A stretch of 64,000 nt of DNA, taken from assembly GCA_903864835.1 (NCBI GenBank), contig CAIPHK010000031.1:188-64187 (forward strand), read 5' to 3'. Shown one piece after another: positions 7,614 through 37,688 of the stretch (the stretch's first letter is position 1; every line of letters starts with the position of its first letter). The DNA is from an uncultured bacterium. Lineage in GTDB: Bacteria; Margulisbacteria; Marinamargulisbacteria; SXXA01. A program made the position numbers and the translations under genes. The notes under the pieces were generated by a model, which saw only the letters and a list, made by a program, of their open reading frames with translations, did not search any database and was not told where the DNA came from.

Positions 7614-8179
7614 TTGAACGGTTTTTTAATGAGTCCATTTCTGTAAAGCAACGTATTTTAAATGATTCGGACTTGATGGCCATTATTTATCGGGCTGCAG
7701 ATACCTGTAAAGCGGCGTTACTGGATGGTAAGAAGATTATTTTAGCGGGAAATGGGGGGAGCTTTGCGGATGCCCAACATATATCCGCAGAATTCACAGG
7801 ACGATTTCTTCTCGAACGGCCGTCTTTGCCGGCCATTGCGCTAGGGTGCAATAGCTCTGCCATGTCCGCCATTGGAAATGATTATGGATTTGATCAAACC
7901 TTTTCGAGGGAGCTGTCGTCGTTGGGTGTTGCAGGGGATGTATTTTTACCAATATCGACGAGTGGGAATAGCGCGAATATTTTGGCCGCTGTAGAGATTG
8001 CGATTCAAAAGGGGATTCATATATTTGGATTGACGGGGTATACCGGCGGTAAATTGGCGGGAATGTGTCCGTGTATTCAAGTCCCGTCGGGATCGACTCC
8101 TCGGGTTCAAGAGGCGCATATTTTAATTGGACATAGCATCTGTGGATATATCGACGATGCGCTTTATCGGGGACGTTAG
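7610..8179 (+). CDS. gmhA: Phosphoheptose isomerase
   Basis: [29 protein letters not shown]. Confidence 0.95.
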
Positions 8180-9065: not shown

Positions 9066-10072
9066 ACTCAATTTTAGTAACCGGTGGCGCTGGGTTCATT
9101 GGGTCAAACTATGTTCTTGATTGGGTCGCCAAGGCGAGTGATGATCGCCGATTGGTGGTACTCGATTCTCTGACGTACGCCGGGGATTTGGATCATTTGT
9201 CTGCCATCTCCGGAAAATTTACTTTTGTTCAAGGGGATATTGCGGATTCTGCCTTGGTGAATCGTGTATTTGAGGAGTATTCCGTCGATCAGGTGGTTCA
9301 TTTTGCAGCAGAGAGTCATGTGGATAATTCCATCACCGATCCGGGTCTTTTTGTCCGGACGAATGTTTTAGGGACATTCTCACTCATTGAAGCGGCCCGA
9401 AATACCTGGATGGAGGCCCCCTTTCAAGTCAGACCTGGCTTTGAAAAGGCGCGGTTTTTACATGTATCCACTGACGAGGTTTTTGGAACATTAAGCGAGT
9501 CCGGTACGTTTTCAGAAACATCGCCGTACGCACCAAATTCCCCGTACAGCGCGACAAAAGCGGGAAGCGATTTTTTGGTTCGGAGTTATTTCCATACCTA
9601 TGGATTAAATGTCGTGACCACGAATTGTTCTAATAATTACGGACCCCGCCAACACGATGAAAAGTTGATTCCAACGATTATTCGGTCGGCCCTGGCGAAT
9701 CGGCCGATCCCGATTTATGGGACCGGTGAGAACATCCGGGATTGGTTGTTTGTGGGGGATCATTGTGGGGCGATTCAACGGGTGATGGACGCTGGGATCG
9801 CTGGGGAAACCTATTTGATTGGGTCTCGAAATGAATGGACGAATAACCGAATCGTCGCTGCTATTTGTAAGATCCTCGATGAAAAAATGCCGCGAAGCGA
9901 TGGTCGACCCTATTCGGATCAGATTACCTACGTGGCGGACCGACCTGGGCATGATTTGCGGTATGCCATTGATCCGTCGAAGATTGAGTCTGAGTTGGGA
10001 TGGACTGCGCCGACCTCGTTTTCGGACGGGCTTGAATTGACCGTGGATTGGTATATAAGGAGATTTAAATAA
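9062..10072 (+). CDS. rmlB: dTDP-glucose 4,6-dehydratase
   Basis: [37 protein letters not shown]. Confidence 0.97.
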
Positions 10073-28398: not shown

Positions 28399-30476
28399 TA
28401 TTCAAGGTCGTCGGATCCATTATGGGCGCCCTGTCGTTGCAGGGTATTGCCCTGTTTGTTGGGTGGCGGGCTAGGAATCGACAGGGGGTGGGGTTTTTTA
28501 TTGGATTTTGTGTTTGTTTTTCGGTGTATTTACTGTTGGCAACCGTACAGGACTATCTGTTTTTTGAAATGCCAATGCAGGTACAGGGTGGGTTGAAGCC
28601 CATCGCTGATTGGGTGAGTTATTTCGCAATGGTGGCCGGAAATTTCTCCGTTGGATCTTTGTTCGGGTTTACCGAAACGTTTCCAGACAATCGGCAATTA
28701 TGGGGGCCCTGGCCTGGCCGATTGGTTTGGTTAGGATTGGCAGTTTTTGTTGGGTTTGGGGTAACGACCCTTAAACCCATTGGGTCGTCGGAGGCTTTTT
28801 GGACGGTTCCTCCCTATTTTGGAGGGTACTCTCTCTTTCTGAGCGGTGTGATTTTGATCATGCTCATTAATTTTGGGTGGAAAATTCAACGGTGCCGGGC
28901 CTCGGAACCGGGGTTGCCGGTGGTGGGTGCGGGACTGGGAATATTGGTGCTCGGGATCCTGGTGGGAGATCTTCTATTTCCGGCATTTAATCATTTTGAA
29001 TGGACTTGGGTGGATAGGGTGTTGGCGAACCTATTTGCACTGTCGGTTTTTGTTGCGGTTACCCAATACAAACTGTTTCGGATTCGAACAGCGGTGCATT
29101 ACACCCTATATTGGATATGGAGCTCCGCCGCATTCGGAGGGATTTTGTTGGTTTCAGTCGGCGGTATGTATCGTTATCGTCTACTCGGAGACCCTCAATC
29201 GATGAGCGCGTGGGTGTTAATGGCATCCATTGTTTCCCTATTGGTAATCTATCATTTAAAACAGATTCAGCCTCGGATCAATCGCTATTTTTTCCGACGG
29301 CAAATGGAACTCAATGAAACGGTTGGGCATTTTCAGAATTCCTTATCAACTTTGGCGACATTGCCCGCGTTTGTGGGAGTTACTACCGTTTTTTTGAAGC
29401 AAACGCTGTTTGTTTCCCGTATTGGATTTGTCTTTCGGTCCAGCGATGATACGTTTACTTATATTGATGATCGGGGTAGCGCGTATTTTCCCATATCCGC
29501 AACGGGGGAATTGACTGAGGAAGGTATGCCTGCTTTTTTAAAAATTGTTGAAGCTGAAGTGGGTACCCGGTTTGTGATCGGAATGGTGCTTGCGGCACAA
29601 GATGGTCCGTTTGGTGTTTTGTTATTAACGGAGATGCAAAATTTGCGTGAATTTGATTTTGAGGATGTTCGGTTTTTAAAACGAATCATCCCAAGTTTGA
29701 GTGTCTATCTCAAAAATGCGGTCTTGTATGACACCGTGCAAGCCAAACGAGATGAATTGGAGACCCTCCAACACCAGTTGGTGGAAATGCAAAGTGGTAT
29801 CCCTGAAAATGCGTTTGGTGCTGCTACCGGACCATTGTTAACCGCAGGTGTTTTACACGAGGTTAAAAATACCCATCTCGCGATGGGGGGACTGATTAAT
29901 CAAATTCTGGAAAAAAAAATTGAAGATCCCGCAATCATTGACGAAATTCTTAAAGCGATCGGATTGCAATCAGAATATCTGTATCTTTTTTCAAAAAATT
30001 TGTTGTATACCAATCAGTGGGCCGTTGATTCCTCCCCGTCGACGGTGGGAAGTGCACCGGTGGATCGATTGGATGTATCGATTGCGATTGAGCAGGCGAT
30101 ACGGCCACATGCGTTATTGATTCGGTCACAGGGGGTCGATGTTGTGACCATAATTGAGACGGAGGCCTGGCTCAATGTGGATTCAAAGTCGTTTCATCTT
30201 CTCCTCAGTAATTTGATCCATAATGCCGCAAAATATGGCGGAAAAAAACTAGAAATCATCGTTCGGTCTGAGGGTCCAGAGCCTGAGGTTGTTGCAAAGT
30301 CGTCTCACTTTGTCGATGGGGTCCCCCTCGACTTTACACTCGGTGTGGGACTTAATATTTGCAAAAAAATTATGTCTAGACATCAGGGGAAACTGTGGGT
30401 TGATGTTGCCCCAGATACGTTTCTTGTAACTGCGCAGTTTGGTCGACTAAACAACACGTGTATGGCTGCGGAGTAA
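28395..30476 (+). CDS. Membrane sensor histidine kinase-like protein (multi-TM, GAF-like, HisKA, shortened HATPase); paralog of 33809..35875
   Basis: LHEVKNTH H-box, NLIHNAAKY N-box, GVGL G2 box; no DxGxG. Confidence 0.8.
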   Translation: MIFKVVGSIMGALSLQGIALFVGWRARNRQGVGFFIGFCVCFSVYLLLATVQDYLFFEMPMQVQGGLKPIADWVSYFAMVAGNFSVGSLFGFTETFPDNRQLWGPWPGRLVWLGLAVFVGFGVTTLKPIGSSEAFWTVPPYFGGYSLFLSGVILIMLINFGWKIQRCRASEPGLPVVGAGLGILVLGILVGDLLFPAFNHFEWTWVDRVLANLFALSVFVAVTQYKLFRIRTAVHYTLYWIWSSAAFGGILLVSVGGMYRYRLLGDPQSMSAWVLMASIVSLLVIYHLKQIQPRINRYFFRRQMELNETVGHFQNSLSTLATLPAFVGVTTVFLKQTLFVSRIGFVFRSSDDTFTYIDDRGSAYFPISATGELTEEGMPAFLKIVEAEVGTRFVIGMVLAAQDGPFGVLLLTEMQNLREFDFEDVRFLKRIIPSLSVYLKNAVLYDTVQAKRDELETLQHQLVEMQSGIPENAFGAATGPLLTAGVLHEVKNTHLAMGGLINQILEKKIEDPAIIDEILKAIGLQSEYLYLFSKNLLYTNQWAVDSSPSTVGSAPVDRLDVSIAIEQAIRPHALLIRSQGVDVVTIIETEAWLNVDSKSFHLLLSNLIHNAAKYGGKKLEIIVRSEGPEPEVVAKSSHFVDGVPLDFTLGVGLNICKKIMSRHQGKLWVDVAPDTFLVTAQFGRLNNTCMAAE

Positions 30477-31541
30477 GTCTGCGGCTAAGCAGGCATGGAT
30501 CGGTTGGATATAGATCAAATCTCCCACTCTCAAAGAGTTAATCCGTTCGGAATCGACTTTTACAGTGCCCTGTTCTTGAGAGAGTTTGACCAAGCGGTTG
30601 CTCCTGGGGAGGGGGGTCCATCCGTCTGAACTTGATGTTACAAGATAGCCGTAGACTTTTTCCGAACCGGTATCCATTACTTCCTTTGAGAAGTGGACAG
30701 CGCCGCCATAAATGACCACTTCGTTTCGATCTGGATATACCCCGATGATCGGTGCGGCCACTGCGACCGCAATGTCGGCTTGGGTACAAGATCCGATTTG
30801 TTCCTGGGTTAAATCGTAGTAGACAAAATTGCCTGGTCGGATTTCATCGATGCCTTCAAATGACTTTATTGTGCTACAGCTGGGGGTATCGCCGATGGAT
30901 ATCAACGGGCACCAGTCGGGCCGAGAAATTTCATTTTTGACGGCGGTTAGTCGGATCATTGTCTGGGCGTGGAGTGCGAGGATGTCCTGTGCTGATCGGA
31001 GTTGATAGCTGTGACCTGAATGGGTCAGAAGTCCGTTGACCTTGATCATCGGGTGACGGGTTTGAATCGCGTTGAGACAGGCTGATATCTCGGTAATACA
31101 GTCCCACTTAAATCCAGTCCTTCCATAGCCCGCGTCAATTTCAAGCCAAATGTTGATCTGTTCGGACCCGTTTAAGATTTCCAGTAGGTGGTCTGCGGTA
31201 GATTTGGAATCAATGAGTATTCCGACTGAAATCGATTGTGCCAACGCCACAACGCGATCCAATTGCAGGATGTTGAGTGGCACGGCAATCGTGATGTCAT
31301 TCCACCCATCGTTCGCAAAATAGTCAGCCATTTCTACAGATGACACCGTGATTTTATCGACCCCCATTTTACGATATATAGCGCCAATAGTATGGCTCTG
31401 ATGGGTTTTGAAGTGGGGTCGAAATCGTATGGAATCGGGAACTTTATTAAGCATCCTAGCGATATTCCTGCGGACAATCGATTCCTTTACCAGCAATGTT
31501 GGGCGGCAAATTGGATCAATGTCGAGAGTCATTGTCATCAT
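30447..31541 (-). CDS. Fold-type III PLP enzyme, D-threonine aldolase / D-serine dehydratase (DSD1) family
   Basis: RPHFKTH (PLP Lys), HSGHSY, GDTPS, EIRPGNFVYYD, PIHAC. Confidence 0.9.
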   Translation of the reverse strand: MMTMTLDIDPICRPTLLVKESIVRRNIARMLNKVPDSIRFRPHFKTHQSHTIGAIYRKMGVDKITVSSVEMADYFANDGWNDITIAVPLNILQLDRVVALAQSISVGILIDSKSTADHLLEILNGSEQINIWLEIDAGYGRTGFKWDCITEISACLNAIQTRHPMIKVNGLLTHSGHSYQLRSAQDILALHAQTMIRLTAVKNEISRPDWCPLISIGDTPSCSTIKSFEGIDEIRPGNFVYYDLTQEQIGSCTQADIAVAVAAPIIGVYPDRNEVVIYGGAVHFSKEVMDTGSEKVYGYLVTSSSDGWTPLPRSNRLVKLSQEQGTVKVDSERINSLRVGDLIYIQPIHACLAADLLRSHTRVV

Positions 31542-31924
31542 GATGTGGCGACGGTGGCGATTAGATCGGCTTCAATCATTACGCCATCCTTTAAGCCCAC
31601 CTCGGGTACGATGGTTCGGGCGGGTGTGTGGCTTCCAAATACCTGTTGGCACTTGTGGTTGACGGGAATCCATAAGTCTTTTTTGACCAGAAATATGGAT
31701 AGCTTCAGTACGTTTCCCCAGTCAGAATTGGCTTCTTCGAGTATCGATTCCATGTTACGAAAAACCTGGTCGATTTGGGCCAAATCTCCCAGAACAATTT
31801 TTCCTGAAACGGGATCGATGGGAAGCTGTCCCGATAGATATAATAGACCGTTATGGACTATTGCTTGGGCATAATGGCCCCCCGGTGTCGGTGCATTTTT
31901 GGTGAAGATGATTCGTCCGTTCAT
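31538..31924 (-). CDS. RidA/Rid family enamine-imine deaminase
   Basis: GHYAQA, LSGQLP, NWGNVLK-like segment, PARTIV, IEADLIA. Confidence 0.9.
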   Translation of the reverse strand: MNGRIIFTKNAPTPGGHYAQAIVHNGLLYLSGQLPIDPVSGKIVLGDLAQIDQVFRNMESILEEANSDWGNVLKLSIFLVKKDLWIPVNHKCQQVFGSHTPARTIVPEVGLKDGVMIEADLIATVATS

Positions 31925-33660
31925 TATTCAAATACTCTTTCTGAATGAGGCCATTCGGTTTTTGCTTTTGCCAGGTCGACGTGAGAATAACTGCGTTGAA
32001 GCCACCGGTCGTTGCCGTCATATTTGGGCGTAAAAATCGACCGTCCATGCATCATTCGACGGTTGTCCAACACAAGAAGATCACCAGGTTCAAGATGAAC
32101 CCCCGACCCTATTTTGTCTAGGGTGTTTCGTAGTTCATTTAATGCCGCTTCTGCGGCTGGGGTTTTAAAGTGAATTTTGCAATGTTCTGCCATGACGATC
32201 GTCATTCCATGGATCATCGGTTGCCAATCGGGCGCCCAATCCTCTCGTTGATAGGATGCAGGTACATCAATTTTGTAGAGGGGTTGGCGTAATATTTCTA
32301 TGGCTTCCGAATGCGTCTGGCGGATGGCCTCTTCCATATCAACCATCGTTGTGAGGCACTTTTTTTCATGGTCTTCCTTTAGACATATCAACAGGAGATA
32401 GTCGGGTTTTATTTTGTGGAACGCCATTTCCATATGAAATCCAAAGGTCACTTTTGATCCCAGATTTGAGAGGCTCTGCTCATGGGCCGGATTCGGGCAG
32501 ATATTATGGACACATTGGCCTTCTTTTTCGTATTTGTAGCTAAAAGGTTGTCCCAAAATTAGGTTCATACCCATTAGCAGCGCTTCGCTTGCGTAGGTGG
32601 TTTTTTCGGACGCGATGACCGTTAACGGGGTATTCGGGAGGTGGGGGTCAATGGGAAGGCCTTTAATTAAAAGATAAGGTTGGCCGGCCCCTGATTTAAA
32701 GAGGTCGATTTGATCTTGAAAATGGGTATAGAGTACGGTCGAAATACCTCGAGTTTCCAGTAAAAAATCTTCAAAATGTTCCTGAGGAGAGCGTATTATG
32801 TCGGTTAATGCTAACTCCAGGTCCGTGCTTATTCTGGGGTCTACCAAGGGTATGATTTCGGGGGTTATGGTTTGTGGAGCCACTGTCTTAGTCGGGGATA
32901 GCTTGAACCGCTTGCTGTCGTGGATCATTTCGATATCGGAGTGGACGCGCTGAAGCTTTTGGAACGCCGTATCGACTGCCGCCCAGTAGGATCTCATTTC
33001 AGTCGTACATGCCATATATCGTGATCCGATGTTGTTGGAAACAAAATCAAGGTGAAAAATTTTTGAGTTCGCAACGATTTCGATGCGCTTTCCACGGAAA
33101 TGGCTGACTTCTTTTCGGATAATATTCAGGATATTAATGGGGTTTATTTCGTATGCTTTGATACCCAATATATTTAATTTGCCCTGATCCATCATTCTGA
33201 GCCCTCCCTTTTTGGTCTCATGTGATTGCAGATGATAGTCCGCCGGTGTTACATAAATTCGAATGAGCTTTGGATTCTCAAAAATGAGCGTTTTGATTTC
33301 ATTGGATGTCGCGATACCAACGGAATATGGTATCGTCGGATGGATTCTGAATCGGGCGCCCTCGTCACACCCATGAGTCTCTGGTTTGGTGTTAATGAGG
33401 AGGGTTGTACAACTTTTGATCAATGGGCGCAACGCGAGCGTGACCCGTCGTTGATCCATTTCATCCTCTATTCGAGGGATTCCAGAAAATGCGACCTTCA
33501 TTGTATTCACAGCATGTGAAAAACGGTGTTTTTTTTCAGTTTGAGTTAATGCCGGTGCTGACTGAAAAAATGGGATAACTCGTACCGGGATTCGCTCAGG
33601 AACTCCGATTGACGGAGTTTCCTGCAAACGAGATATGGCTACGATTCGATGGCGATGCAT
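31924..33660 (-). CDS. Two-domain protein: unknown N-terminal domain plus a clavaminate synthase/AsnO-like Fe(II)/2OG dioxygenase
   Basis: FHMEMAFH (HxE), PDYLLLICL, LDNRRMMHGR, RWLQR; GGAGG RBS 5 nt before ATG 33660. Confidence 0.88.
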   Translation of the reverse strand: MHRHRIVAISRLQETPSIGVPERIPVRVIPFFQSAPALTQTEKKHRFSHAVNTMKVAFSGIPRIEDEMDQRRVTLALRPLIKSCTTLLINTKPETHGCDEGARFRIHPTIPYSVGIATSNEIKTLIFENPKLIRIYVTPADYHLQSHETKKGGLRMMDQGKLNILGIKAYEINPINILNIIRKEVSHFRGKRIEIVANSKIFHLDFVSNNIGSRYMACTTEMRSYWAAVDTAFQKLQRVHSDIEMIHDSKRFKLSPTKTVAPQTITPEIIPLVDPRISTDLELALTDIIRSPQEHFEDFLLETRGISTVLYTHFQDQIDLFKSGAGQPYLLIKGLPIDPHLPNTPLTVIASEKTTYASEALLMGMNLILGQPFSYKYEKEGQCVHNICPNPAHEQSLSNLGSKVTFGFHMEMAFHKIKPDYLLLICLKEDHEKKCLTTMVDMEEAIRQTHSEAIEILRQPLYKIDVPASYQREDWAPDWQPMIHGMTIVMAEHCKIHFKTPAAEAALNELRNTLDKIGSGVHLEPGDLLVLDNRRMMHGRSIFTPKYDGNDRWLQRSYSHVDLAKAKTEWPHSERVFE

Positions 33661-33700
33661 AAAGTCCTCCCGAGAAAATGGTGATAACGGAAGGGGAACT

Positions 33701-33717
33701 TGCACGGATGATGCCAA
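33701..33717 (-). promoter_or_regulatory. Sigma54 -24/-12 promoter of the dioxygenase operon
   Basis: TTGGCATCATCCGTGCA = TGGCA with GG-N10-GC; ~40 nt upstream of ATG 33660; a GAFTGA activator gene lies nearby. Confidence 0.75.
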
Positions 33718-33808
33718 GGTTGAATTGGGTCAAGATCCGGGGGTGTTTATTGAAGGTTTAGGGTCATTTGCGGTATTTGAGTCCGACGCTTACCTCAATA
33801 TGGTGACT

Positions 33809-35875
33809 CTATAATCGACCAAATTTGGTTAATTGATTATTTGCAATTGGGCCCGGGGCGGGCGAATGGGGGACCTGTATTTGAACAAAATAGTGAGAGT
33901 CCGACGACCGAATTTCTAGGGCGCCGCCGTGATGCTCGACAATGTATTTTGAGACATGAAGGCCGAGGCCCGTGGTATTTTCAGAATACGAGTTGGCATG
34001 ATTTTCTGTTAATGGAGAACTAAAAAGGAGCTCATATTCACTATCGCGATACTGACCGGTAATCGTAAGTTGATTGAGTTTTTGATATTTGGCCGCATTG
34101 TTAATGAGGTTGCTGATGACCAAATGAAATTTGTCCTTGTCGGCCCAAATATGATCGGATGCAGTGACGTTAATGTGGATCCGGAGCTGATTGGATTCGA
34201 TAAAGAAATGATTGCTTTGTATCGCATCGTGGATGAGCCCAATAACGGGGGCTTTAGCCGTTCGGAGGGTATATAGTTTCGATCGAATGAGCTCTTGATG
34301 AAGATAGTTCTTAGAAAATAGATGGAGCTTGGTCGATTGTTCTCCAATCACACTCAGGATCGTTTTTATTTCAGAGGGGTTTGATATGGTGCGGTTTAGA
34401 ATCAATGATACAAAATTACTGACTGCGAAATGGGTGTTTTTGACCTCATGAATAATGCCTCGCGCCAATTCCTGGGTATGGGTTTGAATTTGTTCAATAG
34501 CGGCCTTTTCACGTTCAGAATGGATGAGGTCATTTTGGAGTTGAACCAGTTGGGTATTTTTGGCTTTGAGTTCATCAAAGAGGATAGCGTTGTTTAAAAA
34601 AATGGCGGTTTGATGGCTAATTCGGTGCATGAATGTCAGTTCGTCATTCGAATACGGGGTCAGATTCTTTTTTTCACCCACCAGGATTGTTCCCACGAAG
34701 GTGTCATTAATCGCCAGGGGGATTGTGGTTGTGCCCAATTCGACACCGGGGTCAGGATCACCGAGTTTGACTTGGACATGGGTGGCGTATAGCACTTCTG
34801 AAAATGTGGTTTGAATGGTTCGGATCAGTGTTTCTGTTGAATTGAGTTGAGAAATCCGTTCCGCAAAGTCGATGGCGTGTTCACGAAGCTGAAATTTTCG
34901 CCGAAAAAATCGGTGATTGAGCTTGGGTTGTATCCACTGAAAATGAAATAAGACCGCAATTGAGGATATAAAAAGGATTCCAAACAACCCGAGGGGTGTG
35001 AATTGGGCGTGGAATATTGAATTGATAAAGGGTGTTGTTGCCACCAGAATCCCAAGCGGAGGGATAAAAACGACGGTCGATACAATCGCCCAGTAGATCG
35101 TGTAATGGATGGCGGTTCGGATGTTAAAGGCGTTGTATTTGGTCACCGCGACGAACATTCCGAAAAATGTCAGAACAAAACTGTATCGACCATATCTGGC
35201 GAACGAATGGATTCCGAATACCGGTAATAGTGTCGAAAAAACGAAGATCATCGTTACCGTGACACTTAACCAGGGGCACACCCAGCGTGCTTCGTTTCGG
35301 AGATTGGACGGAACGGTCATCATTTTTTTGATGAGGATAATAATGGTCGCAAATAGTCCAAGCCCGACGTAGCCCATGTACAGTGTAAAAAATGGAATTA
35401 AATGGAAATGAAGGTGGTGCGTGACCGGATCTTGTTCCGCGATAAAATAGTTCCCAATAGGGTAGGCTGAGGTGATAAATATCGCTTCTACAACGGTGGA
35501 TATCCCAACGATAAGGGTGACCCATCGTCGATCATTGCGGGTGGTGGGCACAAGATAGTGGATGGCAAATCCAAACAGGCCTGCCAGGAGATAGGGGCCT
35601 GCCAAAAGAGAGGCCAGTCCCGCCCAATGAATTTTTAGGAAATAATAGTGGGTTACGGTGGCAATGTGGTCCGGATTTGCGATGATCTCGGCGTTGGCGA
35701 GTTCAAATAGTCGTTCACGAAGTCCGGCAAAGAACACATATAAAAATGCAAACATTGAAAATATAAACACTGGGAGAACCAGTCGCTTTTTTTGAGCAGT
35801 TATGAGTACAAAAAATCCCATTAACAGCATCGCAATAGCGGCAAATGAGGAAATCCAAAACAAGATAATACTCAT
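33809..35875 (-). CDS. Membrane sensor histidine kinase-like protein (multi-TM, GAF-like, HisKA, shortened HATPase)
   Basis: IIHEVKNTH, NLINNAAKY, TGLGL; ATG 35875 directly after the regulator stop. Confidence 0.85.
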   Translation of the reverse strand: MSIILFWISSFAAIAMLLMGFFVLITAQKKRLVLPVFIFSMFAFLYVFFAGLRERLFELANAEIIANPDHIATVTHYYFLKIHWAGLASLLAGPYLLAGLFGFAIHYLVPTTRNDRRWVTLIVGISTVVEAIFITSAYPIGNYFIAEQDPVTHHLHFHLIPFFTLYMGYVGLGLFATIIILIKKMMTVPSNLRNEARWVCPWLSVTVTMIFVFSTLLPVFGIHSFARYGRYSFVLTFFGMFVAVTKYNAFNIRTAIHYTIYWAIVSTVVFIPPLGILVATTPFINSIFHAQFTPLGLFGILFISSIAVLFHFQWIQPKLNHRFFRRKFQLREHAIDFAERISQLNSTETLIRTIQTTFSEVLYATHVQVKLGDPDPGVELGTTTIPLAINDTFVGTILVGEKKNLTPYSNDELTFMHRISHQTAIFLNNAILFDELKAKNTQLVQLQNDLIHSEREKAAIEQIQTHTQELARGIIHEVKNTHFAVSNFVSLILNRTISNPSEIKTILSVIGEQSTKLHLFSKNYLHQELIRSKLYTLRTAKAPVIGLIHDAIQSNHFFIESNQLRIHINVTASDHIWADKDKFHLVISNLINNAAKYQKLNQLTITGQYRDSEYELLFSSPLTENHANSYSENTTGLGLHVSKYIVEHHGGALEIRSSDSHYFVQIQVPHSPAPGPIANNQLTKFGRL

Positions 35876-35876
35876 G

Positions 35877-37226
35877 TTATCCAATGGATTTTGTGGGGTA
35901 GATATTGTGCTTTCGCAACTTTCCCTGAAGGGTTGAGCGATGAATTTTGAGCTCTCGGGCTGCGCCTGACAGGTTATGGTTGTGTTTGGTTAATGCGTTT
36001 TTTATTTCTCCAACTTCGATGGCGTCAATTTGATCATTGAGGGTGCCTTCCTTTGAGAGATTAGAGGGGGCTGTGGCCCACCGTGGGATATGAATTTCAC
36101 CCTGGCTATGAAGCCATACCATAATTTGAATTTCATTTTTGAGTTCTCTCAGGTTGCCGACCCAATGGCTTTCTAATAGCTTTTGTTGGATCGGGGCCGA
36201 TAATCTAAAATTGCAGCTATATTTTTGATTAAACTCTGAAATGTAGTGTTCAGAAAATTGGCGAATAAGTTCTGGATTTTCTTTGAGAGCCGGGAGTTTT
36301 ACGACAAACTGTTTGATCCGATAATACAGATCGGAGCGAAACTCTCCATTTTTGACCGCGACCTCTAAGTCTTTGTTGGTTGCGGTTATCAAGGTGAAAT
36401 CCAGTTGAATTTCTTTGTGTCCCCCAATTCGGACCACTCGTTTGGTTTCTAGGACGCAGAGGAGCTTTTCTTGGAGCTCGCGGCTAAGATTGCCGACTTC
36501 ATCCAAAAATAAAATCCCCCCGTTGGCCATCTCAAATTTCCCCTTTCGCGTGTCGACTGCTCCGGTGAACGCCCCGCGTTCCGTTCCAAATAATTCGGCT
36601 TCCGCAAGTGAGTGGCAGATGGCGCCACAGTCGATAGAGATCAACGGTTTTTTTGGCATCAATTTCTGATGAATGTAGGTGACGAGTGTTCCTTTTCCAA
36701 CCCCAGTTTCGCCCAAAATGACCAGCGATAGCCCACCCTTTACGGCCCGCAGTGCCAAATCAAATGTCGTTTGGTAGTCACGGATGTCCGGAATAAAAAT
36801 ATCGATATCAGACTCGATGGCAACTCTGGACTCTGACCATTGTCGTTCAAGTTTGGCATCGAGAATTTCTTGGATTGTTTTGTTGAGTAAGCCGGGATTG
36901 GTTTCAAGATCTTCCTTAAAGACGTAGTCCTTAGCGCCGTGTTTGAGGCAGTTCAATACCATTTGGGGATCATCACTCACTGTTGCCATGACGATGGATA
37001 CGTCAGGATGCTCCCGACGAATGGTTGTCAGTAGGTCGAACTCATGGACGTCCGGCATCAAAAGATCGAGGACCACAAGTTGGATATCGTTGGTCCTAAG
37101 ATGGGTTAATGCGGCGCGTTGGGTTTCCGCCTCGAGAACGGTGAAATTTGCACAGAGCAGCGATTTGAACTGCAGCCGCACAAGTGTATTATCGTCAATA
37201 ATTAATATGAGCGGCTTAAATTTCAT
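35877..37226 (-). CDS. NtrC-family sigma54-dependent response regulator
   Basis: Receiver IIDD..LDLLMP, GETGVGK, GAFTGA, LFLDEV, GNLREL, Fis-type HTH. Confidence 0.95.
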   Translation of the reverse strand: MKFKPLILIIDDNTLVRLQFKSLLCANFTVLEAETQRAALTHLRTNDIQLVVLDLLMPDVHEFDLLTTIRREHPDVSIVMATVSDDPQMVLNCLKHGAKDYVFKEDLETNPGLLNKTIQEILDAKLERQWSESRVAIESDIDIFIPDIRDYQTTFDLALRAVKGGLSLVILGETGVGKGTLVTYIHQKLMPKKPLISIDCGAICHSLAEAELFGTERGAFTGAVDTRKGKFEMANGGILFLDEVGNLSRELQEKLLCVLETKRVVRIGGHKEIQLDFTLITATNKDLEVAVKNGEFRSDLYYRIKQFVVKLPALKENPELIRQFSEHYISEFNQKYSCNFRLSAPIQQKLLESHWVGNLRELKNEIQIMVWLHSQGEIHIPRWATAPSNLSKEGTLNDQIDAIEVGEIKNALTKHNHNLSGAARELKIHRSTLQGKLRKHNIYPTKSIG

Positions 37227-37235
37227 CGTCGGCAA

Positions 37236-37307: not shown

Positions 37308-37688
37308 CTATAGCGTCTCTAAGAAGTTTTTGTATTCTTCTGGAGTCATGAGGTCGTCGATTTCTTTCTCATCGCTGAGAGATACTTTGACGAGCCATCC
37401 ATCGTCGTAAGGGGATTCGTTGACGTACCCTGGATTTTTGCTGAGCTCCAGGTTGGTTTCAAGAACCTCGCCTCCGACCGGTAGATAGAGGGATGAAATG
37501 GTCTTAACGGATTCGACCGATCCAAATTCATCCATCTGGCCGATTTGGCGACCAATTTCGGGTAGGTCGACGAATACGATTTCTCCAAGTTCGTCAACGG
37601 CGTGTTGTGTAATGCCAACGATGGCCGTGTCATTTTCGACGCGTACCCACTCGTGTTCTTCTGTATATTTGAGATCCGATGGGATCAT
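37308..37688 (-). CDS. gcvH: Glycine cleavage system H protein
   Basis: LKYTEEHEWV, ESVK lipoyl Lys, NESPYDDGW. Confidence 0.96.
   Translation of the reverse strand: MIPSDLKYTEEHEWVRVENDTAIVGITQHAVDELGEIVFVDLPEIGRQIGQMDEFGSVESVKTISSLYLPVGGEVLETNLELSKNPGYVNESPYDDGWLVKVSLSDEKEIDDLMTPEEYKNFLETL

Follow-up and report, generated by a model that had tools for sequence, protein, structure and literature searches.

Several described systems resemble in part the one analyzed here. RidA genes accompany enamine-releasing dehydratases, as in the tdcB–tdcF and IlvA–RidA pairs. The pyridoxal 5'-phosphate (PLP)-dependent step of capreomycidine biosynthesis involves β-elimination. In that pathway, the product of a clavaminate-synthase-like (CSL) β-hydroxylase is the substrate of a PLP enzyme, as exemplified by VioC/VioD and CmnC/CmnD (PMC8399532, PMC9513391). 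Also, the gene for the editing factor CtdA lies directly upstream of a PLP-dependent canavanine degradation operon, and CtdA is needed for canavanine tolerance (Pseudomonas canavaninivorans, Rhizobium; PMC10018355). Here, we analyze a 64,000-nt stretch of DNA from an uncultured bacterium (contig CAIPHK010000031.1, positions 188 to 64,187; the whole stretch is referred to as the window), in which overlapping genes encode an oxygenase fused to an N-terminal YbaK/ProX-like domain, a RidA-family protein, and a fold-type III PLP enzyme, and we tentatively suggest that the three enzymes hydroxylate, dehydrate, and deiminate an amino acid. Each catalytic domain belongs to a known family, and the combination is newly described as far as we could find in the literature, in which we came across neither a YbaK–oxygenase fusion nor a dioxygenase/RidA/D-serine dehydratase (DSD) pathway.

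The locus in the window compares with these systems as follows. As in IlvA/RidA and TdcB–TdcF, a PLP enzyme predicted to catalyze β-elimination is encoded beside RidA; however, the putative dehydratase is of fold type III and metal-dependent whereas theirs is of fold type II, and we propose that the upstream oxygenase installs the hydroxyl group, which in those systems is already present in the nutrient. With capreomycidine biosynthesis the locus shares the succession of a CSL β-hydroxylase and a PLP enzyme for its product, but there the PLP enzyme is a fold-type I aminotransferase-like cyclase that makes a cyclic amino acid for a nonribosomal peptide synthetase (NRPS), whereas fold type III together with RidA predicts deamination. 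The canavanine operon similarly links an editing-type protein to the PLP-dependent degradation of a toxic amino acid (PMC10018355); CtdA, however, is a separate protein of the B3/B4 fold that acts together with a γ-lyase, while in the window a YbaK-like fold is fused to the first enzyme.

Five minus-strand genes, all co-directional, lie between positions 30447 and 37235, and the three that would make up the pathway have the following features:

Start ATG at 33660, minus strand: oxygenase fusion, 578 aa, C-terminal half TauD/clavaminate-synthase-like
33666–33670, minus strand: Shine-Dalgarno sequence GGAGG, 5 nt ahead of the ATG at 33660
32911–33486, minus strand: N-terminal domain of the oxygenase fusion, residues ~59–250, predicted divergent YbaK/ProX-like fold
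31924–32793, minus strand: catalytic domain of the oxygenase fusion, residues ~290–578, clavaminate-synthase-like Fe(II)/2-oxoglutarate (2OG) type
31538–31924, minus strand: RidA-family imine/enamine deaminase, 128 aa
30447–31541, minus strand: fold-III PLP enzyme, 364 aa, with Ala_racemase_N and D-ser_dehydrat domains

The mechanically called open reading frame (ORF) of the oxygenase begins at a TTG at 33717, which lies within the promoter described below; the real start is the ATG at 33660, which is kept in the orthologous locus L001 (81% identical), where the Shine-Dalgarno sequence is identical as well. One nucleotide is shared by the oxygenase stop and the RidA start (TAATG) and four by the RidA stop and the start of the PLP-enzyme gene (ATGA). 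A preliminary description of this DNA had proposed three translationally coupled genes encoding an AsnO/CAS-like HxE 2OG dioxygenase, RidA, and a fold-III PLP enzyme of the dehydratase type with an H-A-C metal site; the overlaps confirm the former, and the database matches and catalytic residues detailed below agree with each of the three assignments.

The triad is rare. Word-indexed searches with the full-length oxygenase, followed by searches with a profile of four sequences, recovered no relatives beyond four proteins among 5.8 billion protein clusters; a motif scan of 185,579 species genomes (one per GTDB species) recovered none either, which, given very specific motifs, is weak evidence of absence. 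Based on context look-ups and a metagenome scan, the four oxygenase cluster representatives fall into three lineages with 48–54% oxygenase identity between lineages. Lineage A includes the window, loci L001 and L002, and a 94%-identical PLP gene; lineage B consists of loci L003, L005, and L089; and lineage C of L004 and P0004. In all three lineages, the gene order is oxygenase, RidA, PLP enzyme, and the genes overlap or abut (in L004, the start of the PLP gene is visible before the contig ends). The flanking genes are unrelated: in lineage A, gcvH and the genes for an activator and a kinase lie upstream and a polyprenyl synthase gene downstream, while in lineage B the triad follows an HSP90 gene and precedes the nuo operon. 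Because order and overlaps are kept in three lineages with unrelated flanking genes, a neighborhood comparison that the preliminary description had suggested, a shared pathway is indicated, and we conclude that the three enzymes are a conserved functional unit. The module is limited to a handful of uncultured lineages from fresh water. The sequence of the window derives from lake-water metagenomes; its SucC shares 73% identity with that of one metagenome-assembled genome labeled Rickettsiales and at most 64% with all others, which indicates that the collection contains no closely related genome. At the 5' end of the lineage B oxygenase gene in L003 (9750–9930), poly-C runs, an N run, and a duplicated segment mark a scaffolding artefact, and because of this artefact the protein P0003 is called as 517 aa; based on L005, the true protein has at least 560 aa.

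The C-terminal domain of the oxygenase is TauD/CAS-like (PF02668, 6e-15). Against the PDB, residues ~290–578 matched CAS1 (5e-33), AsnO (2e-30), and the L-lysine 3-hydroxylase KDO1 (1e-26), and also CAS3 and Arg hydroxylases; identity to AsnO/VioC/KDO1 over the catalytic domain is ~30–35%. The NCBIfam models GntD, CAS1, and VioC matched with 159, 157, and 109 bits, respectively, all below their cut-offs of 345, 450, and 419, and the oxygenase is the orthologue of no characterized enzyme. To place the active-site residues, we mapped them by alignment onto the CSL-family logo, and the roles of the logo positions are those given by the same source (PMC6224419). H409, E411, and H538 form the HxE...H iron triad and align with those of CAS1, AsnO, and KDO1. 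R552 aligns with the 2OG-binding Arg and R556 with the substrate-carboxylate Arg, which is present in all CSL groups. E378 occupies position P2, which in AsnO and KDO1 contacts the α-amine and in users of free amino acids is Glu or Gln (it aligns with E125 of AsnO, and CAS1 has Leu), while K379 and N399 correspond to the Lys/Asn pair that characterizes the AsnO clade. The triad, both Arg residues, the α-amine Glu, and the Lys/Asn pair are, thus, features in which the oxygenase resembles AsnO/VioC/KDO1. In addition, P467-A-S469 and E492 correspond to the AsnO sub-pocket PPS...D241, and this AsnO-like pocket suggests a substrate with a small polar or cationic side chain. All these residues are invariant or conservatively replaced across the three lineages. 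Judged by its active-site residues, the domain looks like a hydroxylase of a free L-α-amino acid of this kind. The oxygenase differs from AsnO/VioC/KDO1 in several respects: it has an N-terminal extension of ~290 aa with the YbaK-like domain, which none of the solved relatives possesses, and it is encoded in a small, catabolic-looking operon instead of an NRPS or antibiotic cluster.

Among plasmid-borne relatives of the catalytic domain, the nearest (40% identity) is encoded on Bacillus mycoides plasmid NZ_CP150649.1 (L096, 22562–37269). Its cluster also contains genes for an AMP-binding enzyme, a small hypothetical protein, an argininosuccinate-synthase-like protein, and SbnB as well as a divergent RidA gene, and appears to direct the biosynthesis of a product derived from 2,3-diaminopropionate.

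RidA of the triad belongs to PF01042 (1.3e-24) and, with 90.3 bits for TIGR00004 (slightly below the cut-off of 106.25), is a divergent member of its family. The Arg in the motif P[AS]RTIV, which we take to be the equivalent of the active-site residue R105 of Salmonella RidA, is kept in five sequences that cover every lineage.

The PLP enzyme comprises PF01168 (Ala_racemase_N, 1.3e-15) and PF14031 (D-ser_dehydrat, 1.1e-13), and its PDB matches are to chicken DSD (3ANU, 4e-37) and the Delftia D-threo-hydroxyaspartate (D-THA) dehydratase (3WQC, 2e-34). K45 aligns with the PLP Lys of 3ANU/3WQC and H349-A-C351 with their HAC metal ligands; these key residues are kept in all lineages, the metal motif being HAC or HSC. 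The enzyme, thus, has the two-domain fold-III architecture, the PLP Lys, and the His-x-Cys metal site in common with DSD (chicken), Dsd1p (yeast), and D-THA dehydratase (Delftia), from which it differs in being only ~30% identical and in its translational coupling to RidA and an oxygenase. The metal in enzymes of this family binds to the substrate's β-hydroxyl. A His/Cys metal pair is found in the dehydratases, while D-threonine aldolase has His/Asp (PMC4401734). We considered whether the PLP enzyme could instead be an aldolase and gave this reading less weight: matches to D-3-hydroxyaspartate aldolase and D-threonine aldolases in the PDB were at 1e-7 to 7e-5, the BhcC model scored 47 bits against a cut-off of 690, and the second metal ligand is Cys and not Asp. 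The sequence comparisons support that the PLP enzyme belongs to the dehydratase branch and not to the aldolase branch. Relatives in the former branch accept β-hydroxy-Asn and -Asp; specifically, Dsd1p and the Delftia enzyme also dehydrate the L-configured erythro forms of both (PMC8071972). Because the characterized relatives are ~30% identical and the nearer ones are uncharacterized, dehydratase specificity is an extrapolation.

We also considered, and rejected, a general linkage of the wider PLP subfamily to oxygenase and RidA genes, because the closest homologues outside the triad lie in a petABC context or next to unrelated Rufibacter genes. In the former context (L086, L087, L090, and L091; 49% identity), the arrangement, which is conserved, is petA-petB-(MGMT-like)-petC-PLP-(2Fe-2S thioredoxin-like) with an adjoining Fic gene, and one of these homologues comes from the same sample as a lineage B triad.

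The preliminary description had noted the extra ~250-aa N-terminal domain of the oxygenase and left it unexplained. The domain is present, and it was assigned a YbaK/ProX-like fold by AlphaFold2 (AF2) and Foldseek. With the N-terminal 265 residues as query, an exhaustive HMMER search identified only 37 relatives among 1.84 billion representative proteins, 19 of them at E ≤1e-10. Most are stand-alone proteins of 200–300 aa, and some carry the domain C-terminally in proteins of ~500–850 aa. At curated thresholds, no Pfam or NCBIfam family was assigned to this domain in any relative scanned. PF04073 tRNA_edit, the most-matched family, weakly matched five of the 37 (best 1e-3), and TIGR00011 YbaK_EbsC matched one (2e-3, 18 bits against a cut-off of 153); the N-domain of the window matched neither. 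AF2 modeling with the family alignment gave a predicted local distance difference test score (pLDDT) of 93.4 and a predicted template modeling score (pTM) of 0.89, and with this model all of the top 30 Foldseek matches in the PDB had the YbaK fold (probability 1.0, E down to 1.4e-7, target-normalized TM 0.6–0.73). They are mainly ProX, YbaK, APE2540, the ProX-AlaSA complex, and the INS domain of ProRS, and include designed scaffolds, structural-genomics entries, and the signaling proteins SadB and Maqu_0641. Similarly, the best PDB profile match of the domain is APE2540 (1WDV).

In the family alignment, the motifs KPxTxGCxxAxxxR, hExK(T/S)L, YTVNPxN, and FVTNNxGSR stand out, and in the fusion these correspond to KPxTxGC98xxAxxxR105, E121-x-K123-TL, N173-P174, and N209-N210-x-G212-SR. 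A weak hhalign alignment with E. coli YbaK (E = 0.056) pairs K46 with K123, the GGISP loop with EINP (P174), and SGGKRG with SNNIGSR; K123 also aligns with the Lys in VKTL of APE2540. The loop lacks the Gly, and other subgroups of the family have Arg or Leu in place of the Lys. Domain and motifs are kept in all three oxygenase lineages. According to the structural model, the N-domain is a divergent, unannotated version of the YbaK/ProX-like aminoacyl-tRNA-editing fold, and according to the alignments it appears to keep the key Lys of this superfamily and adds its own invariant Cys98 and Arg105. The N-domain, therefore, resembles the YbaK/ProXp/ProRS-INS deacylases in fold and in the order of motifs and probably also in the K46-equivalent Lys and the loop Pro, and differs from them in its own invariant Cys, Arg, and NN-G-SR and in its fusion to an oxygenase. 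Being a branch of the YbaK superfamily that is rare, unannotated, and marked by invariant Cys/Arg/Asn motifs, it would be a target for structural and biochemical work.

Other relatives of the N-domain have features of their own. In P0007, P0008, P0013, P0019, P0023, P0025, P0030, P0031, and P0039 (loci L093 and L094), the YbaK-like domain is C-terminal to a conserved, unrelated ~280-aa domain that has no Pfam match even at E = 5 and contains the His-rich motifs GFHTH, (V)PHxH, and IHNF. Judged by these motifs, the ~280-aa domain may be a cupin-type metal site, in which case fusions of the YbaK-like domain to metal-dependent enzymes would have arisen twice. P0008 is encoded by a single gene divergent from a gene for a transporter of the sodium:dicarboxylate-symporter family. 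The stand-alone homologues P0009, P0011, P0015, P0016, P0018, P0020, P0022, P0024, P0029, and P0035 share a short C-terminal tail, (L/M)xGDHGR(H/S)R or GDYxR, after a low-complexity linker.

From these components we infer the chemistry of each step, the nature of the substrate, and the role of the N-domain. The module would be an inducible three-enzyme system that removes the α-amino group from a specific, possibly toxic L-α-amino acid by way of oxidation of the β-carbon. In the first step, the CSL domain would hydroxylate the free amino acid at C3 in a reaction that requires Fe(II), 2OG, and O2; in the second step, the DSD-type enzyme, with its His/Cys-bound metal on the β-hydroxyl, would eliminate water to give an enamine/imine; and in the third step, hydrolysis of this intermediate by RidA would yield a 2-oxo acid and ammonium. 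As an integral, conserved part of the first enzyme, the N-domain must contribute to the function. The YbaK/ProX-like fold of the N-domain changes the likely source of the substrate: the N-domain would most likely capture or liberate the substrate, e.g. by binding or hydrolyzing an aminoacyl ester, before the oxygenase step. Because the oxygenase site keeps residues for binding a free carboxylate, ester hydrolysis, if any, would precede hydroxylation. The core of this pathway, i.e. hydroxylation, dehydration, and deimination, is supported by the coupled and conserved triad, by the free-amino-acid signature of the oxygenase, by the dehydratase signature of the PLP enzyme, by the position of the RidA gene between the oxygenase and PLP genes, both of which it overlaps, and by the RidA–dehydratase pairs and the capreomycidine pathway as precedents. 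This is the reading we favor, while rating its likelihood at a little under even. If it is correct, amino acids would be deaminated by a new route, from an Fe/2OG β-hydroxylase via a metal/PLP dehydratase to RidA, suited to compounds that are beyond the reach of transaminases and lyases.

Several observations weigh against this pathway. D-THA dehydratase and DSD take D-substrates or L-erythro isomers, as work by Maeda in 2010 and Matsumoto in 2015 is said to have found, and the products of AsnO and VioC are L-threo, which is a stereochemical mismatch with the preferences of DSD-type enzymes. Applied to a proteinogenic amino acid, the route would waste 2OG and O2, which a transaminase or lyase would not consume, and this cost implies that the substrate must be unusual. 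Moreover, the oxygenase falls under the equivalog cut-off of every NCBIfam model that it matched, and the closest homologues of the PLP enzyme (43–49% identity, thousands of bacterial and archaeal proteins) are stand-alone, with neither an oxygenase nor RidA encoded beside them. Finally, a full-length AF2 model of the oxygenase, built from four sequences, had a pLDDT of 41 and was unusable, so that communication between the domains of the fusion is not deducible from it.

A different purpose for the same chemistry deserves consideration, although we regard it as improbable. Here, the YbaK-like domain would act as a deacylase that strips a toxic non-proteinogenic amino acid from a mischarged tRNA or another aminoacyl ester, for example an aminoacyl-nucleotide antimetabolite; the same polypeptide would immediately hydroxylate the freed amino acid, and the dehydratase and RidA would destroy it and so block its recharging. 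The predicted YbaK/ProX fold with its apparently retained catalytic Lys and loop Pro points in this direction, but the domain is too divergent for the YbaK thresholds of Pfam and NCBIfam, the Lys is replaced in other family subgroups, and YbaK folds also serve as ligand-binding domains in the signaling proteins SadB and Maqu_0641. The invariant residues C98, R105, N173, P174, N209, N210, and G212 suggest a defined active or binding site, and the fusion is kept across all three lineages. The oxygenase, in turn, keeps the free-carboxylate residues R556 and N399, so it should act after deacylation. The CtdA/canavanine system provides a precedent (PMC10018355), and the window originates from lake water, where non-protein amino acids of cyanobacteria occur, an ecological link that is our own. 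On the other hand, no tRNA or aminoacyl-tRNA synthetase gene lies nearby, and Rfam and tRNA scans found no RNA genes in the window. The fusion of a hydroxylase to an editing fold suggests that a proofreading-type domain was recruited into small-molecule metabolism; if the domain indeed edits, the clearing of mischarged tRNA would be physically joined to the catabolism of the offending amino acid, and only the unfused CtdA/canavanine system so far points toward coupled editing and degradation.

Alternatively, the three enzymes could be co-regulated without acting in sequence, which we likewise consider unlikely. The DSD-like enzyme and RidA would then form a dehydratase pair of their own for D-serine or another pre-existing β-hydroxy (D-)amino acid, and the oxygenase would act on a different substrate; in a variant, the oxygenase itself would oxidatively deaminate a D-amino acid to an imine that RidA hydrolyzes. 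Those relatives of the PLP enzyme that have been characterized are D-specific dehydratases, for which prior hydroxylation is unnecessary, and the PLP subfamily is mostly stand-alone. VioC, a relative of the oxygenase, oxidatively deaminates D-arginine (PMC12721151), which suggests that a CSL enzyme and RidA could suffice on their own. However, the strict co-occurrence, fixed order, and overlaps of the three genes in three divergent lineages with different flanks argue against independent functions, and the oxygenase carries the L-amino-acid binding constellation of AsnO and KDO1.

We rate lowest, as quite improbable, a biosynthetic role, in which the module would make a β-hydroxy amino acid, a dehydro or 2-oxo intermediate, or a small signaling or secondary metabolite, or the PLP enzyme, as a retro-aldolase, would yield glycine and an aldehyde that feeds the neighboring GcvH. 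The characterized CSL enzymes (AsnO, VioC, CAS, KDO) are largely biosynthetic, the Bacillus mycoides relative (40% identity) clusters with genes for an AMP-binding enzyme, SbnB, and RidA, the fold-III family includes the aldolases BhcC and D-threonine aldolase, and in both the window and L001 the regulator genes have gcvH as their immediate upstream neighbor; nevertheless, no NRPS, carrier protein, ligase, or export gene lies beside the triad in any lineage, the metal site is of the dehydratase type (His/Cys and not His/Asp), the similarity to aldolases is weaker by ~30 orders of magnitude, gcvH is missing from lineage B, and two-component σ54 control is typical of nutrient- or stress-responsive catabolism.

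Upstream of the triad, the window contains two regulator genes and several candidate control elements:

35877–37235, minus strand: NtrC-type response regulator/activator with receiver, AAA+ domain with GAFTGA, and Fis-type helix-turn-helix
33809–35884, minus strand: membrane sensor histidine kinase, 691 aa, with transmembrane segments, H-box, and HATPase_c
33897–33906, plus strand: copy 2 of GAGTCCGACG, within the kinase coding region; one mismatch in L001, within conserved coding sequence
33813–33834, no strand assigned: inverted repeat AATTAACCAAA/TTTGGTCGATT, candidate upstream activating sequence, 82% complementary in the window
33779–33788, plus strand: copy 1 of GAGTCCGACG, intergenic; no counterpart in L001
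33701–33716, minus strand: putative σ54 −24/−12 promoter TGGCATcatccGTGCA, TGGCAT-N5-GTGCA

The activator has the Pfam domains Response_reg (4.5e-20), Sigma54_activat (3.5e-54), and HTH_8 (8.5e-9) with GAFTGA at residue 221; its true start is likely the ATG at 37226, and its orthologue in L001 has 449 aa. In the kinase, a hydropathy scan predicts ~8–9 transmembrane segments, which are followed by the H-box IIHEVKNT and HATPase_c (5.4e-7), and NCBIfam kinase models match the protein. The kinase start and the activator stop overlap by 8 nt. The sensor and GAFTGA activator that the preliminary description had placed directly upstream are, thus, present.

A σ54-type GG/GC promoter had also been proposed there, and the element TGGCATCATCCGTGCA is located at 33716–33701 on the minus strand ahead of the oxygenase gene. 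Its −24 and −12 elements are kept in L001 (TGGCATGACCGGTGCA; TGGCATgaccgGTGCA), in which most of the surrounding intergenic DNA has diverged. The predicted transcription start site is ~33690, which would give a 5' untranslated region of ~30 nt. A look for transcripts turned up only metagenomic contigs from a strain ~95% identical, which carry no information on strand or transcription start. TGGCA-N7-TGCW occurs three times in the window (0.61 expected). The other two exact matches, at 7847–7862 (minus strand) and 12118–12133 (plus strand), both appear to lie within coding regions and are probably due to chance, since no obvious gene start lies downstream.

The preliminary description had further pointed to a repeat, GAGTCCGACG, at enhancer distance. 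Both copies of the 10-mer, at 33779 and 33897, are present, but the role did not hold up because neither copy is exactly conserved in L001; moreover, one copy lies in the kinase coding sequence, and a third occurs elsewhere in the window, at 56129. Based on these comparisons, the repeat is probably due to chance. Instead, the inverted repeat at 33813–33834 is, besides the promoter and leader, the only island in the intergenic DNA that is conserved between the window and L001. Its version in L001, AAATTAACCA-N4-TGGTTAATTT at 9827–9850, has perfect 10-nt arms. Although an indel of 57 nt lies further upstream, the center of the inverted repeat is almost equally far upstream of the −24 GG in the two loci, by 109 nt in the window and by 108 nt in L001. 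Because both sequence and spacing are conserved, this palindrome is the best candidate for an activator site and a better one than the GAGTCCGACG repeat. The kinase ORF of the window is, at 33809–33870, ~30 codons longer than that in L001 (9720–9745) and reads through the palindrome, which in L001 is intergenic and ~85 nt past the kinase stop. In lineage A, the membrane kinase and the NtrC-type activator would switch on the σ54 promoter, probably from the palindrome ~109 nt upstream.

The regulation differs between lineages. Upstream of the lineage B triad, there are no regulator genes, and a σ70-like promoter (TTTACG-17-TAAAAT) is present instead of a σ54 promoter; no convincing σ54 element was seen in the upstream region of lineage C. 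The preliminary description had presented the operon as σ54-controlled; σ54 two-component control was seen in the window's lineage only and is an add-on of lineage A and not a property of the module.

Two neighboring genes complete the picture of the locus. Directly upstream of the activator gene lies an orphan gene for the glycine-cleavage H-protein, gcvH (37308–37688, minus strand; GCV_H, 2.8e-44), with no gcvT or gcvP nearby; L001 has the same arrangement. On the other side, a second, paralogous membrane histidine kinase (28395–30476, plus strand), which is 27% identical over 665 aa and has the same architecture, is encoded convergently to the PLP gene with a 30-nt overlap of the 3' ends. 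This gene is missing from the syntenic locus L001, and in contigs of a ~95%-identical strain (X6–X8) it has four internal skips of 147–369 nt; it looks variable or decaying.

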